Assembly: GCA_035353815.1 (NCBI GenBank) | Contig: DAOQAG010000010.1 | Coordinates: 14,054-78,053, forward strand | Reading direction: 5' to 3' | Length of the DNA: 64,000 nucleotides | Source: a bacterium | GTDB lineage: Bacteria; Zhuqueibacterota; Zhuqueibacteria; Residuimicrobiales; Residuimicrobiaceae | Shown here: positions 18,001 to 27,000 of the stretch, one piece after another | Position numbering within the stretch: the first letter of the stretch is position 1 | Layout: each line of letters starts with the position of its first letter | Program-made: the position numbers

Positions 18001-21000
18001 GCCAATTTCGGCGTGCCCGAGGGCTGGTTCTTCTGGAAGGGCGGCATGTCAGAGGGCATCGGCGATGAAAAGGGCATCGTCACCCTCACCAGCAAATACG
18101 CCCACAGCGGCCTCTATTCCCTGCTCATCTCCGACAATGCGGCGAACGGGGATGAGGTGGTGGCCATTTCCAACCGCGATCCCGTGCAGCCCGATACCGA
18201 GTATCTCGTCTCGGCCTGGGTCAAGCTCGAAGGGGCCACGGTCAACACCACCAAGGACGTCGAAAAGTCGATCTTTTTCACCGTCACCTACCACTCGGAC
18301 GAGGCCGGCTGGGCCGAGCGCCATGGTTCGGACTTTTTCGTCGTCGATCAGAGCGCAGCCGACCGCGACTGGGCGCTCTACACCTTCCGCATCAAAACCG
18401 AGCCGCTCGACCGGCGCATCTCGATCCGTGCCCGGCTGCAGCACCAGGCGACCGGGAATGTCTACTGGGATGATTTCCAGGTAATGCCGATCGCCCAGGT
18501 GGCCAATGGCATGGGCTTTGAAGCCGACCTGCCCGCCTACTGGACCAAGGTCAATGAGAGCGGCGCGACCCTGGCCTGGACCAGCGACGTGGCACGCTCG
18601 CCGCAGCGCAGCCTGATGATCCAGAAGGGCTCGGGCAACGAGACCCCCGCCTGGCAGACCAGCGCCAACATGGCCAAGCTGCAGTGGAATCCGACGACGG
18701 GTATACCGCCCAACGTCGAGATGGTGATCGGCGGCTGGGTCAAGACAGAGAATGTCACCGTCAATCCGGCGACCGCCGACGGCGAGATCCACCTCGTTTA
18801 CACCTTCTTCGACAAGAGCAAGGCGGTCATTTTCGGCCAGCCGGTCGTCCTCAAGGTCCCTCAGGCTCAGGCGACCAGCGACTGGACCGAGATCAAGAAC
18901 GATGCCCCCATCGTTCTTCCGACCGATGCCGACTCGATGAGCATCCAGTTCGCTTTCGGCCCTGCCGCCACCGGCACGGTCTGGCTGGATGATATCTTCA
19001 TGAAGGTGGCTCCCGGGGCCAGCGGTTGGCTGGGCGATCTCTACAATGCCAACTTTGGCGTACCGGCAGGCTGGTTCTTCTGGAAGGACCGGATGAGTGA
19101 GGGCGAGCAGGATTACGGCACGGTCAGCATCACCCGTGATGCCGCCCATACCGGCGATTACTCCCTGCTCCTTTCGGATGAGGCCGCTAATCCGGCCGAA
19201 GTGGTGGCGATCAGCGACCGCAATCCGATCCTGCCCGGACGTCTTTATACCGTGCAGGCCTGGGTGAAAACCGAGGGCGTGACCATCAATACGACCCAGG
19301 ATGTCGAAAAGTCGGTCTTTTTCACCCTGACCTATCACACCAACGAGGCGGGATGGGCGGAGGTTGGCGGCACCGATTTCTTTATCGTCGACCAGAGCGT
19401 GGCGGACAAGGACTGGACCCTCTACACCTTCACCGTCGCGCCGCCGGCCAACGCAACCCGCATGTCCATCCGCGCGCGGATGCAGCATCAGGCCACCGGC
19501 AAGGTCTACTGGGATGATTTCGCGGTGGTCGAGGGCAATGTGACCCGGGTTCCTGGCCAGGAAGCAGCCGTGCAGCCGGCGATTTACCGCCTTGCCCAGA
19601 ACTATCCCAATCCCTTCAATCCCGAGACGCGGATCAGCTTCTCCCTGCCGAAGGAAGGCCGGGTCAAGCTGGCGGTCTACGATCTCCTCGGCAATCCCGT
19701 CCGCACCCTGATCTCCGCCAAAATGGCGGCGGGTGAACACCAGATCCTCTGGGATGGGCGCGATGAGAACGACCGGATGGCCGCTTCCGGGATCTATTTT
19801 TACATTCTCGAGACCAAAGACGCACGCATGATGCGCAAGATGACCCTGGTCAAGTAAAACCGCATGTGCCACGCACCCGGTTGGGTGCGTGGCACACTGC
19901 TTTTATGGGAGCCACCCATGCGACTTAAACCCGTTTTATGGCTGCTGGCCGCGACTGCTGCGCTGGCGGCGCCGCTGCTGGCCGGGACGACCGGAAAAAT
20001 TGTCGGCCGCGTTGCGGATGCCGGATCCCGGGAGGGTTTGCCCGGCGCCAATGTCATCGTGGAGGGGACAAACCTCGGCGCCGTCTCCGATCTCGAGGGG
20101 CAGTACCTGATCCTGCGGGTGCCTCCGGGGATCTATACCCTGCGCGCCAAAATGCTCGGCTATACCGAGATGAGCTACGACCGGGTGCAGGTCTCGATCG
20201 ACAAGACCACCACGGTCGATTTCAGTCTCTCCCAAACCGTCCTGCAGACCGGCCAGACCATCACGGTCACGGCCACCAAACCGCTGGTTGAACGCGACCT
20301 CACCTCCACGGTCGCCACGGTCAATTCCGAGATCATTGGCCGCCTGCCGGTCGATAACATGCAGGATGTTATCAATCTGCAGGCCGGCGTGGTCGACGGA
20401 CACTTTCGCGGCGGCCGCAGCGGCGAGGTGGGCTACCTCATCGACGGCATCTCGATCAACGATGTCTATTCCGGCAGCTCCGCGGTGCAGGTGGAGAATA
20501 CCGCTGTGCAGGAACTGCAGGTGATCAGCGGCACCTTCAATGCCGAATACGGCCAGGCCATGTCCGGCATCGTCAATGTGGTCACCAAGGAAGGCGGCGA
20601 ATCGTATCACGGTTCGCTCACCAGCTATGTCGGGGATTATGTCAGCAATCACACCGACATCTTCTGGAATGTCGACGCCTTTAATCCGATCTCCAACCTC
20701 GAAGGCACCCTGAGCGGACCGGTCCCCGCCCTGCACAACCGGCTGACCTTTTTCGCCTCGGGCCGCTATTATGACAACGAGGGGGCACTCTACGGGCGCC
20801 GGGTCTTCCTCCCCTCCGACTCGGCCAACTTTCCCAGCAGTGATGCGCGCGACTGGTACATCGAGTCGCATGGCAAGGGCCGGCGTTTCACCTCGCAGCA
20901 GGATTTCGCGCACTATGCCGACAGCCTGAAAAATTCGGGCGATTACGTCGCCATGCGCCCGAGCCGGCGCTATACCGGCCAGATCAAGCTGGCCTACAAG

Positions 21001-24000: not shown

Positions 24001-27000
24001 CAGCGCCGCCGCCGCGCGAAAAGCTGGTGCAGAACACCAATCTGGGCATGTTCTTCAGCTCCGGTCCCTTTGAGCTGAAGGCGGGCGACACCCAGTTCTA
24101 CTCCATGTCGCTCCTCTTCGGCGAAGACCAGGCCCAGCTGGCCCGCGAGAAAAAAACGGTGCAGCAGATCTACAACGCCACCTATCAGTTCGCCCGTCCC
24201 CCCGACAAGTCGCGGCTGACCGCGGTGCCCGGCGACCACAAGGTCGTGCTCTACTGGGATGACACGGCGGAAAAATCCTGGGATCCCTTCCTGCAGGCGC
24301 ATGATTTTGAGGGCTACCGCATCTACCGCACCACCGATGCGGAATTCTCCGAGGCCCAGGTCATCACCGATTCCTACGGCAAGGCGCGCTTCCGCAAGTA
24401 CATCGCCGAGTTCGACCTCAAGGACGGCATCAAGGGACTGCACCCGATCGACATCGAGGGCATCAAATTCGACCTCGGCGAGGATACCGGTCTGCGCCAC
24501 TATTATGTCGATACCGATGTCGAAAACGGCCAGACCTATTATTACGCCGTGGTCCCCTATGACCGCGGCCTGGTGACCGTCACCTCGACCGGCGTGACCT
24601 CCGGTATATCCCCCTCCGAGGCTTCCAGCGTCATCCGCGTCAGCGCCGCCGGGGTGGTGGAGTACGTCGACATCAACTGCGCCGTGATCACCCCACGCGC
24701 GCCCGCGGCGGGGTACCAGGCGCCGCAGCTGGCGGGCGGGCTGCAGCACGATGGTCCCGGCACCGGCCAGCTCGAGGTGGAGCTGCTCGACGCTAATGCC
24801 CTGCAGGACAATGCCTCCTATGCAGTGATCTTTCATGACACCTCCGCCTTCGCGCTCAACCGCGGGGCGACCTTCGACTGCAGCAATATCACCTCGCAGA
24901 CCGCACTGCTCGAAGGGGCACAGCTGGAGGAGGGCCTCGGCATCACCCCGGTGCTGGAAGGCATGGTGATCCACGTCAACGGCGACACCGCTTGTCAGGT
25001 CATCGAAACCGAGACCGGATGGGTCAAGGGCCAGCATGGCTGGAGCTTCCGCGTCGGCAAGAATCCCAGTCTGAGCGGGCGCTTCGTCCCCTATCCCGCC
25101 GATTTCGAAATGACCTTTTATGATCACATCGTCGACACCTCGCAGGCCCTCCTCTTCGGCCAGCAGGCGATCGCCGTGCCCTTTATGATCTATAATACCA
25201 CCGAAGCGCGCGTGATGGATTTTCTCTTTGGCGACAAGGACAAGGATGGCCAGTTTTCGCCCGGGGATTCGGTCACCATCGTCACCGGTGTGCGTCTGGG
25301 TGAGCCGCTGCCCACCCCCAAATCCCGCTTCAAGGTGGCCTGGACCTTCTTTTACGATCCGGCGGCGGGAAGCAGCGACCGGCCGGCCGCCGGAGATATC
25401 TTCCGCATCCGCACCACCAAGCCCTTCCGCGACGGCGAAAGCTTCCGCTTCACGGTCCAGGGCGTGCGCGCAAGTGCCAGCCTGGCCAAGGATGGCCTGG
25501 CCGCCATCACGGTGGTGCCCAATCCCTATTGTGCCGCTGCCAGCTGGGAGCCGCGCAATCCCTTCCGCTTCGGCCGGGGTGAGCGCCGCATCTTTTTCAA
25601 TCACCTGCCCGCCCGCTGCACCATCCGCATCTATACGGTGCGCGGCTATCTGGTCAACAGCATCGAGCACGACAGCAGCATCGACGACGGTTCCGAGAGC
25701 TGGGACCTGGTCTCCAAGGACGGGATGGATATCGCCTTCGGCGTCTACCTCTTCCAGGTCGACGCCCCCGGCATTGGCACCCATATCGACAAATTCGCGG
25801 TCATCAAGTGACATGCCATTGAACATTTTACGGAATCGCTTATGAAAAAGATCGTCATGATAGCTTGCCTGCTGCTGACAGCTGCGGCGCTCGTCGCCGG
25901 GGATGTCGCCAAGGTCGGCGTCACCGCCGCCCCCTTCCTCTCCATCGGCGTCGGCGCGCGGGCGACCGGAATGGGCGGGGCCTTTGTCGGCACCGCCGAC
26001 GATGCCAGCGCGCTTTACTGGAACCCCGCCGGCATCGCCCGCAGCCGCGATATCCAGGTGCTGTTGATGCATACCCGCTGGCTCGCTGACCTGAGGTTCA
26101 ATTTCGCCGGATTCACCCTCCCCCTGGGGGCCTTCGGCAGCCTCGGGGCCTCGCTGACCTCCCTCGATTATGGCGACATGGCGGTGCGCACCACCGACCA
26201 GCCGGATGGGACCGGCGAGATCTTTTCCTCCAGCGATCTCGCCATCGGCCTCAGCTATGCGCGCAGCCTGACCGACCGCTTCTCTGTCGGTTTCAATCTC
26301 AAGTATATCACCCAGAGCATCTGGCATGAGAATGCGGATGGTTTTGCCATCGATTTTGGCACCCTCTTCGTCACCGGACTGCACGGGCTGCGCATCGGCG
26401 CCTCCTTGAGCAACTTCGGCACCGACATGCGCATGGAGGGCAAGGATCTCCTGGTCTATCACGACATCGATCCCAACATCCTGGGCAACAACAACCAGAT
26501 CCCGGCCGATCTCCAGACCGGGGAGTGGTCGCTGCCGCTGACCTTCCAGTTCGGTCTGGCCATGGAGCCCTGGAAATCGCCCCTGCACCGGCTGACGGTC
26601 GCGGCCGACGCCATCCACCCCAGTGATAATACCGAATCGATCAATCTCGGCATGGAGTACGGATTCCGGGAGATGCTCTTTCTCCGCGCCGGCTATCGCG
26701 ATCTCTTTTTGCGCGACCGCGAGCAGGGTCTCACCCTGGGGGCCGGCCTCGCCACCCGGAATCTCGGCAATGTGCTGATCCAGCTGGACTATGCCTATGC
26801 CGATTTCGGCCGTCTCGAGAACGCCCAGCGCTTCTCATTCAGCATGGCCTTTTGAGGAGCGGCATGGAGGCCATCGTCATTGACAAACCGGGGGCGGCGC
26901 AGATGATCGCCACGGCGGCGATCGATACGGCCAGCCTGATCGCCCGGCGCATCCCGCTGGCGGAGGTGCCCGGAATCCTGGCGCTGATGGCCGCGGGCGA

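Follow-up and report, generated by a model that had tools for sequence, protein, structure and literature searches.

Here we analyse a window of 64,000 nucleotides (nt) from a bacterium of the phylum Zhuqueibacterota (family Residuimicrobiaceae; assembly GCA_035353815.1, contig DAOQAG010000010.1, positions 14,054 to 78,053 of the forward strand), in which three consecutive genes encode a TonB-dependent receptor, a secreted protein of 1053 amino acids (aa) that we call BIG, and an outer-membrane beta-barrel of the PorV/PorQ family. We found that these three genes are kept together across phyla and in distant paralogues, and that BIG ends in an atypical but conserved C-terminal domain (CTD) of the kind recognised by a type IX secretion system (T9SS). 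In our estimate there is an even chance that the three proteins make up one surface complex, in which BIG would be exported by the T9SS, pinned to the barrel by its CTD, and act as an extracellular accessory of the receptor. The novelty, in our view, is that a utilisation locus built around a transporter has a partner and an anchor that are both of a new type.

Conservation of the receptor, BIG and the barrel

19918-22632, + strand: TonB-dependent receptor, 904 aa, with signal peptide, CarboxypepD_reg domain, TonB-box-like TITVTAT, plug and barrel
22650-25811, + strand: BIG, secreted protein of 1053 aa, all beta, from a family without annotation; conserved partner of the receptor
25842-26855, + strand: 337-aa outer-membrane beta-barrel of the PorV/PorQ family (NF033709), proposed anchor of BIG

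An earlier note on this DNA had described the receptor and the 1053-aa protein, at 19918-25811, and had proposed the latter as a possible analogue of SusD. Both open reading frames (ORFs) are real at these positions and sizes, and the gap of 15 base pairs given between them is approximate: the TGA of the receptor lies 17 nt from the ATG of BIG, or 14 nt from an upstream GTG. The receptor matches PF00593 (E 1e-30, 108.4 bits against a cut-off of 27), PF13715 (E 3e-16) and PF07715 (E 2.5e-05, 25.2 bits against a cut-off of 23.9), and the TITVTAT motif, read by eye, is located just ahead of the plug. With plug and barrel both recognised, it is a genuine TonB-dependent receptor. Its orthologues show 50-94% identity and many of them match PF25183 (OMP_b-brl_4), which we take to be a model of Oar-type barrels; a sequence search of the PDB gave no close relative. 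A kinship with SusC and SusD, in contrast, did not survive. Membership of the SusC/RagA family was rejected for the receptor, which reaches 46.8 bits against the TIGR04056 cut-off of 368.25 and aligns over N-terminal residues 45-171 only. BIG was rejected as a SusD homologue, having no SusD Pfam match at E<=10, being nearly all beta and not helical in AlphaFold2 (AF2) models, and not being a lipoprotein.

The predicted signal peptide of BIG ends at LWA/QRKP and has no lipobox, and a lipobox-like pattern occurs in 2 of 72 family members, in agreement with the earlier view of the partner as secreted and non-lipidated. Some other means of anchoring would therefore be needed. BIG has no Pfam or NCBIfam match even at E<=10, and a sequence-profile search of the PDB was likewise empty. 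More than 3600 homologues were found, of which the best 120 are full-length, 51-94% identical, and either unnamed or called ‘hypothetical protein’. In an exhaustive search the matches amounted to 4372 clusters at 50% identity, of which 637 reached E<=1e-30; the proteins are 1050-1600 aa long. Relatives are encoded in at least 570 species-level genomes from KSB1, Calditrichota, Ignavibacteriota, Kryptoniota, Rhodothermales/Balneolales, Neomarinimicrobiota and Delongbacteria, with identities across phyla of 47-94%, and one cultured carrier of an orthologue is Rhodothermaceae bacterium RA (AWN76_014005). In a Pfam scan of 38 distant members, only sporadic FlgD_ig matches and inserted Reg_prop propellers were recovered.

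The barrel gene starts 30 nt 3' of BIG. Its product matches NF033709 over its full length (240.6 bits against a cut-off of 90) and the PDB entry 6h3i_F, annotated as PorV (E 4.5e-15), but stays below the equivalog cut-offs for PorV (NF033710, 89.5 against 250 bits) and PorQ (NF033711, 102.5 against 220 bits), and misses that for PorV2 as well. Judged by these profiles, it is a bona fide member of the PorV/PorQ family, in a distinct subfamily that is neither the PorV nor the PorQ equivalog. It also gives a weak match to the NCBIfam model BamG, a family of the barrel-assembly machinery (E 1.2e-4, 21 bits). The barrel gene had been overlooked in the earlier note, which had BIG delivered and anchored through the T9SS. 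Delivery by this route stands as the favoured reading, and the presence of the barrel gene directly downstream led us to revise the mechanism from generic attachment to anchoring on a cognate barrel, as in PorZ-PorQ.

Gene order was compared in 80 species-level genome loci and in 80 metagenome loci chosen from distant paralogues, the latter being 31-47% identical to one another. Wherever the flank suffices, the genome loci hold the order (LacI)-(CTD cargo)-receptor-BIG-PorV-like-(ABC transporter and further genes), with a peptidyl-prolyl isomerase (PPIase)-like gene interposed between BIG and the barrel in Neomarinimicrobiota. The order of the trio is retained, bar exceptions, in the metagenome paralogues too. 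Counted at a stricter threshold, at which a few more loci are short on one side, the receptor is directly 5' of BIG in 120 of 125 testable loci and a PorV-like gene is 3' of it in 123 of 126 (∼96-98%). The lineages with the trio include KSB1, Calditrichota, Ignavibacteriota, Kryptoniota, Rhodothermales/Balneolales, Neomarinimicrobiota and others. When the search was made from the side of the receptor, each of three independently chosen homologues was followed by a protein of 1048-1118 aa without Pfam match, and PorV came next in two of the three. The pairing of receptor and BIG is far beyond chance. A check for a partner that is absent or variable beside orthologous receptors came out negative, and the earlier claim of a conserved functional pair is upheld by adjacency across phyla, in paralogues and from the receptor side. 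Distance matrices of the three proteins correlate pairwise at r = 0.85-0.92 with similar mean divergence, which fits inheritance and duplication as a unit, although a shared species phylogeny alone could give a high r and no control gene was compared.

Several loci depart from the simple order. In one, the order is permuted to receptor-PorV-like-BIG (L158, 1971-9570). Two others carry a tandem duplication, BIG-PorV-like followed by receptor-BIG-PorV-like, in which the second BIG has ∼1600 aa (L083, 3-12912; L084, 2-11847); the module therefore duplicates as a block. The interposed PPIase-like gene (Rotamase_2/SurA-like) is seen in L062, L066, L067, L068, L080, L081 and L082, all of Neomarinimicrobiota, and elsewhere, in the window (37795-39258) and in other phyla, its homologue lies a few genes downstream. 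Its product may be a dedicated periplasmic chaperone of the module.

The genes around the trio change between paralogous loci, where the neighbours include FG-GAP, InhA-MAM and CBM9 proteins, M23 peptidases, Amidase_2 and GATase_4-like proteins, all with canonical CTDs. The trio thus makes a portable core, set amid variable cargo. In three loci, which are mostly from marine metagenomes, the barrel is followed by a CTD-bearing Peptidase_M23/Amidase_2 hydrolase or GATase_4-like protein, with FG-GAP proteins upstream (L118, 10455-11543; L105, 10524-11633; L091, 10299-11486). This suggests that some trios are dedicated to cell-wall fragments, and a cultured strain of Fidelibacterota (SAR406) is reported to live on exogenous muropeptides (PMC11652737).

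Architecture of BIG and its C-terminal domain

22719-24209, + strand: BIG residues 24-520, beta-supersandwich domain (AF2 and Foldseek)
23547-23933, + strand: BIG residues ∼300-428, Asp-rich loop insertion in the supersandwich, with DxDxDG-type motifs and putative Ca2+ sites
24216-24644, + strand: BIG residues ∼523-665, FN3-like domain (secondary structure and FN3-type Foldseek matches)
24657-25469, + strand: BIG residues ∼670-940, beta-sandwich domains (model confidence ∼90)
25497-25808, + strand: BIG residues ∼950-1053, divergent T9SS-type CTD
25524-25583, + strand: insertion YCAAASWEPRNPFRFGRGER in the CTD, separating strand 1 (VVPNPY) from strand 2, possible docking motif

Two AF2 models were used. 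The model of full-length BIG is of moderate quality, with a predicted local distance difference test (pLDDT) of 67 overall and ∼90 for residues 670-1053; the model of residues 24-520, built with 86 more diverse sequences, reaches a pLDDT of 92.8 and a predicted template modelling score of 0.91. BIG is predicted to be all beta. In Foldseek searches, the full-length model gave generic FN3/Ig, adhesin and S-layer matches, together with PorZ and PorU. Residues 24-520 matched GH94 cellobiose and chitobiose phosphorylases, GH116, GH149/GH161, a GH15-type dextran dextrinase, the phosphorylase module of cyclic-glucan synthase, and YidC, at a probability of ∼1.0, E values of 1e-5 to 1e-3 and identities of 7-10%. 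The part in common is presumably the non-catalytic beta-supersandwich at the N-terminus of the GH94-type enzymes and, for YidC, the periplasmic domain.

Across 72 distant members, the conserved parts of BIG are the core of the supersandwich, the FN3-like domain, which is among the best conserved stretches of the profile, and the CTD. The sandwich domains at ∼670-940 are least conserved, with identities of 0.12-0.27 to distant members and with insertions; residues 690-930 are the most variable, and the region is a candidate for specificity or a peripheral role. The Asp-rich region at ∼300-428 consists mostly of loops in the AF2 model and varies in length among paralogues: insertions of at least 40 aa fall within it 73 times in 71 distant members. 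D307, D309, D311, E316, E420 and D422 are invariant in all 72, and D355 also counts as invariant. The calcium-binding Asp-rich repeats of the earlier note are thus present as invariant DxDxDG-type motifs, and it is from the motif that we would predict binding of Ca2+.

The CTD of BIG is real but atypical. Aligned by hhalign with the canonical CTDs of neighbouring cargo, it gives a probability of 91.8% and an E value of 7e-7, and the C-terminal region of BIG matches PorZ (5m11) in Foldseek with a probability of 1.00 over 130 columns at 25% identity. We read the PorZ match as the CTD region, the sole part of both proteins able to correspond. FlgD_ig is matched by 2 of the 38 distant members. The domain is modelled with a pLDDT of ∼90 outside an insertion of ∼16 extra residues, which is the lone low-confidence stretch (pLDDT <50) of an otherwise confident region in the monomer model. 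The insertion lengthens the spacing from PNPY to LP to 24-26 residues, compared with ∼9 in canonical CTDs. Its residues W966, E967, G975, R976, G977 and R979 are invariant among 41 A1 orthologues, and a stricter form of the whole motif is present in 73 of 111 trios, paralogues included. The CTD is also the most conserved part of BIG, with a mean pairwise identity of 61%, compared to 47% for the canonical CTDs of the same loci, and it forms a class separate from the cargo CTDs of those loci. The earlier assignment of a T9SS CTD to the partner therefore finds support in kinship of fold, by hhalign and by the Foldseek match to PorZ, though the domain diverges from the curated models.

The operon and other features of the window

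15290-16294, + strand: LacI-family transcriptional regulator at the head of the operon (Pfam LacI, Peripla_BP_3, Peripla_BP_1)
16324-19857, + strand: 1177-aa secreted protein with three CBM4_9 stretches (PF02018, E 4.6e-26) and a canonical T9SS type A CTD
19865-19896, + strand: GC-rich perfect hairpin of 14 base pairs with a T-rich tail, CTGCTTTTAT, terminator- or attenuator-like (terminator-site scan)
27028-29541, + strand: 837-aa glycoside hydrolase- or phosphorylase-like protein with distant C-terminal similarity to GH94/GH65
29549-32694, + strand: sugar ATP-binding cassette (ABC) transporter, with solute-binding protein (29549-30868) and permeases (30986-31888 and 31885-32694)
32691-40314, + strand: later operon genes, encoding a 508-aa exported protein (YPO2471-like), a 1178-aa protein with CBM96 and a canonical CTD, a 487-aa PPIase-like protein and a GH130 enzyme

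Read on the + strand, the receptor and BIG lie within one long run of genes on the same strand. A LacI-family regulator fills the same position in many related loci, the sugar ABC transporter is kept 3' of the trio in orthologous loci, and the later genes at 32691-40314 recur there as well. Together these genes support a LacI-regulated carbohydrate-utilisation operon. The similarity of the 837-aa enzyme to GH94/GH65C is faint and does not pin down the substrate of the locus.

The 1177-aa protein scores 27.5 bits with TIGR04183 (cut-off 23) and 123 bits with a hidden Markov model (HMM) built from local canonical CTDs. In most of the related loci that extend far enough upstream, the gene before the receptor encodes a protein with a CTD. 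With its CBM4_9 stretches, the 1177-aa protein is a candidate surface glycan binder, and a more obvious one than BIG. The hairpin is located in the 60-nt gap between its gene and that of the receptor and, over 15 kb, no terminator-like site is stronger. As a partial terminator it could set the dose of the CBM protein above that of the trio.

Further observations concern other genes of the window. The 508-aa exported protein (32691-34217) has no Pfam match and is related at E 5.6e-58 to structure 7tem, a ‘putative exported protein YPO2471’ whose function is unknown; the 508-aa protein is encoded 3' of the trio in many orthologous loci as well. An ORF of 2878 aa at 53893-62529 matches SdrD_B in 11 stretches, has additional stretches that resemble CarboxypepD_reg, and ends in a canonical Por_Secre_tail (38.6 bits). 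We read it as a giant repeat adhesin exported by the T9SS, and it shows that canonical type A CTDs are in use in the organism. At 833-1417 a short ORF (195 codons from stop to stop) matches the local canonical-CTD HMM weakly over its last ∼30 residues (20 bits, E 6e-6); this may reflect a small cargo of the T9SS, or chance. The region at 46000-54000 is an island of low G+C content (47-52%, against ∼62% elsewhere), with genes on the minus strand for a carbamoyltransferase, an SxtJ-like protein, a GDSL lipase/acylhydrolase and a methyltransferase. Its appearance is that of a cluster for modification of a surface glycan or a small molecule, gained by horizontal transfer.

Explanations for the trio and their implications

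The scheme that we propose for the three-component complex is as follows. BIG would cross the inner membrane via Sec and be carried over the outer membrane by the T9SS through its CTD. It would retain this domain, unlike ordinary cargo, and the CTD with its 16-residue insertion would dock on the cognate PorV/PorQ-like barrel, as in PorZ-PorQ and PorU-PorV, fixing BIG at the surface beside the receptor. There the supersandwich and FN3 parts may assist the receptor in capturing or handing over oligosaccharides that are released or bound by the co-encoded CTD-bearing CBM proteins. The receptor would import the oligosaccharides, and the ABC transporter, GH130 and GH94-like enzymes would complete uptake and breakdown. 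What the analysis establishes is the gene content, the folds of the domains, the strict synteny, the co-diversification and the atypical but conserved CTD. We infer the export of BIG by the T9SS, its retention on the barrel, its physical contact with the receptor and its role in substrate capture; a T9SS in the organism is likewise suggested by three canonical-CTD proteins and the PorV-family gene in the window. Uptake is the preferred reading because LacI, the CBM4_9 and CBM96 cargo, the ABC transporter, GH130 and the GH94-like enzyme are found in the operon, and the N-terminal domain of BIG has a supersandwich fold associated with carbohydrate enzymes. A three-part complex is favoured because the dedicated barrel and the distinct, hyper-conserved CTD follow the same logic as PorZ-PorQ and PorU-PorV. 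The capture of glycans as such may be left to the CBM4_9 protein encoded upstream, and the co-encoded CBM proteins rather than BIG are the likely glycan binders. Of the earlier suggestion that BIG is a surface glycan-binding partner, the conserved partnership with the receptor holds; the CBM4_9 protein, which had been overlooked, is the likelier binder.

Parts of this arrangement are known from other systems. PorZ and PorU of Porphyromonas gingivalis are large surface proteins with type A-like CTDs, encoded with or bound to a barrel of the PorV/PorQ family, and the C-terminal region of BIG resembles PorZ by fold. PorZ and PorU retain their CTDs, which mediate anchoring, and bind PorQ and PorV; it has been proposed in a review that cognate PorV-like barrels shield the CTD from cleavage (PMC10202324). 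BIG differs in having neither the beta-propellers of PorZ nor the C25 peptidase domain or a conserved Cys/His of PorU, and BIG and its barrel are instead tied to a TonB-dependent receptor, in nutrient-utilisation loci and sometimes in tandem (L083, L084). The principle of a cargo-specific barrel that is encoded beside its cargo and anchors it at the surface is also found for type B CTD cargo with cognate PorP/SprF-like barrels, for example SprB-SprF (PMC9143113). In that case the barrel differs, since ours scores as PorV/PorQ and not as PorP/SprF, and the CTD of BIG resembles type A (FlgD_ig-like) and not type B.

With SusC/SusD (RagA/RagB) the trio has in common a transporter with an N-terminal CarboxypepD_reg-type domain, followed by the gene for an obligatory, co-inherited extracellular partner, in an operon for glycan utilisation that is regulated and also encodes surface binding proteins and, downstream, enzymes. 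The partners are not homologous: SusD is a helical, TPR-like lipoprotein of ∼550 aa, whereas BIG is a 1053-aa all-beta protein that lacks a lipobox, carries a CTD of T9SS type and has a PorV-like barrel dedicated to it. Our receptor does not pass the SusC model, and uptake at the inner membrane is by an ABC transporter. For non-SusC transporters of Bacteroides, conserved neighbouring lipoproteins other than SusD have been proposed as lids on the outer face (Price et al., bioRxiv 10.1101/2023.03.17.533168); these are small lipoproteins, and BIG is much larger, is not a lipoprotein and has its own barrel. The xylan locus of Rhodothermus marinus, Rmar_1067-1073, consists of LacI, CTD-bearing GH43/CBM6 and CBM4-GH10 (Xyn10A) proteins, and then the TonB-dependent receptor Rmar_1070, with Rmar_1071 listed as a hypothetical protein with signal peptide and Por CTD and Rmar_1072 as a hypothetical protein, from which the paper draws no conclusion (PMC6987092). 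By the published table this is the gene layout of our window, with Rmar_1071 and Rmar_1072 as possible counterparts of BIG and the barrel; no R. marinus protein was among the top 120 of a homologue search aimed at the Rmar_1071 link. In full-text literature searches, and in the genome papers on Melioribacter, Caldithrix and Zhuqueibacterota, the trio was not described as a module.

Several observations weigh against the proposed complex and its role in uptake. The CTD of BIG has no match to TIGR04183 or PF18962 at E<=10, even when the last 129 aa are searched alone, and the canonical-CTD HMM from neighbouring cargo missed it too. Core T9SS genes are absent from the window. The supersandwich fold also occurs in proteins unrelated to carbohydrates, such as the periplasmic domain of YidC, and paralogous trios stand beside peptidoglycan hydrolases and FG-GAP proteins and not beside CAZymes, so that glycan binding by BIG is not a given. 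In one locus (L167), no PorV-like gene directly follows BIG within the retrieved stretch, and in another (L110, 5845-9132) a BIG homologue has neither a receptor nor a PorV-like neighbour and is flanked by unknown proteins of 862 and 832 aa. The conservation of BIG, which is that of a machine part and far above that of SusD-type binders, argues for a structural or machinery role and not for substrate-specific binding.

This last point also suits an alternative in which BIG and the barrel would form a locus-specific T9SS attachment or docking station, an analogue of PorZ-PorQ that tethers or processes co-encoded canonical-CTD proteins beside the receptor, with no handling of substrate by BIG. 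We consider this rather unlikely. In our window its clients would be the two CBM proteins (CBM4_9 and CBM96), and in paralogous loci they would be hydrolases; at least one canonical-CTD protein does adjoin the trio in most loci with enough upstream DNA. The order of BIG and then the barrel mirrors the adjacent porU-porV of P. gingivalis (presumably PG0026/PG0027), and both PorZ and PorU are among the Foldseek matches. However, the beta-propellers of PorZ are missing from BIG, the absence of a family-wide invariant Cys/His pair makes sortase chemistry unlikely, and the obligatory TonB-dependent receptor is left unexplained. BIG had also been considered directly as a PorU-like sortase, a candidate that was rejected because neither NF033707 nor Peptidase_C25 is matched and because, in sets of 72 and of 38 diverse members, no Cys or His is invariant.

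That the receptor instead works as an Oar-like exporter, moving BIG or another neighbour over the outer membrane, strikes us as improbable. The TonB-dependent transporter Oar is needed for secretion of PopC in Myxococcus (PMC6434023), which gives a precedent for protein secretion, and CarboxypepD_reg directly follows the signal peptide of our receptor, many of whose orthologues match PF25183. Against this, BIG has a T9SS-type CTD of its own and a neighbour of the PorV family, the context of an ABC importer and an intracellular GH130 points to import, and a folded multidomain protein of 1053 aa is an unlikely passenger of a plugged 22-strand barrel. Less credible still is that BIG is a surface enzyme (a glycoside hydrolase, lyase or phosphorylase of a new kind) with no tie to the receptor beyond their common operon. 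The N-terminal domain does have a fold like that of GH94, GH116, GH149, GH161 and GH15-type enzymes, and invariant acidic residues exist; yet the matched part is presumably the non-catalytic N-terminal beta-sandwich, and BIG, predicted to be all beta, therefore lacks the helical catalytic barrel of GH94-type enzymes and has no room for one. Moreover, the invariant acids belong to loop motifs of the DxDxDG type, as is typical of Ca2+ sites, a scan of 38 diverse members gave no CAZy-related Pfam match, and the same family accompanies unrelated sets of substrate genes. We give least credence to BIG as a general adhesin or S-layer-like protein whose place beside the receptor has no functional meaning. 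Its multi-domain beta-sandwich build and generic FN3, adhesin and S-layer matches are what such a protein would show, but adjacency in 120 of 125 loci and in at least seven lineages, in paralogues and tandem duplications, and with co-diversification, speaks against an incidental position.

Beyond the complex itself, we put forward tentatively, and with more doubt than confidence, that the trio is a general nutrient-uptake unit, the counterpart of SusC/SusD, in lineages of the Fibrobacterota-Chlorobiota-Bacteroidota (FCB) group outside Bacteroidia (KSB1/Zhuqueibacterota, Calditrichota, Ignavibacteriota, Kryptoniota, Rhodothermota/Balneolales and Fidelibacterota). Its partner protein would be delivered by the T9SS and pinned to a dedicated barrel, and its paralogues would be specialised per polymer, fragments of peptidoglycan included. 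To predict polysaccharide utilisation loci, one depends on SusC/SusD, a pair that occurs largely within Bacteroidota proper. In the sister lineages (Ignavibacteriota, Calditrichota, KSB1, Rhodothermales/Balneolales and marine SAR406/Fidelibacterota), which recur among soil, sediment, hot-spring and marine loci, the uptake genes are annotated as ‘TonB-dependent receptor’ and ‘hypothetical protein’. A conserved but unannotated trio, with at least 570 species-level genomes and ∼4400 clusters at 50% identity, would give a handle to find and classify substrate-uptake loci, and BIG is a large family that deserves a Pfam or NCBIfam model. The module would add a cargo-specific anchor subfamily to the PorV/PorQ family and would extend the biology of the T9SS from secretion and attachment to the building of a fixed transporter partner. 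If the trio is indeed a general uptake unit, utilisation loci in these phyla could be predicted with it as a marker, and it would represent a new way to build a transporter-partner complex.

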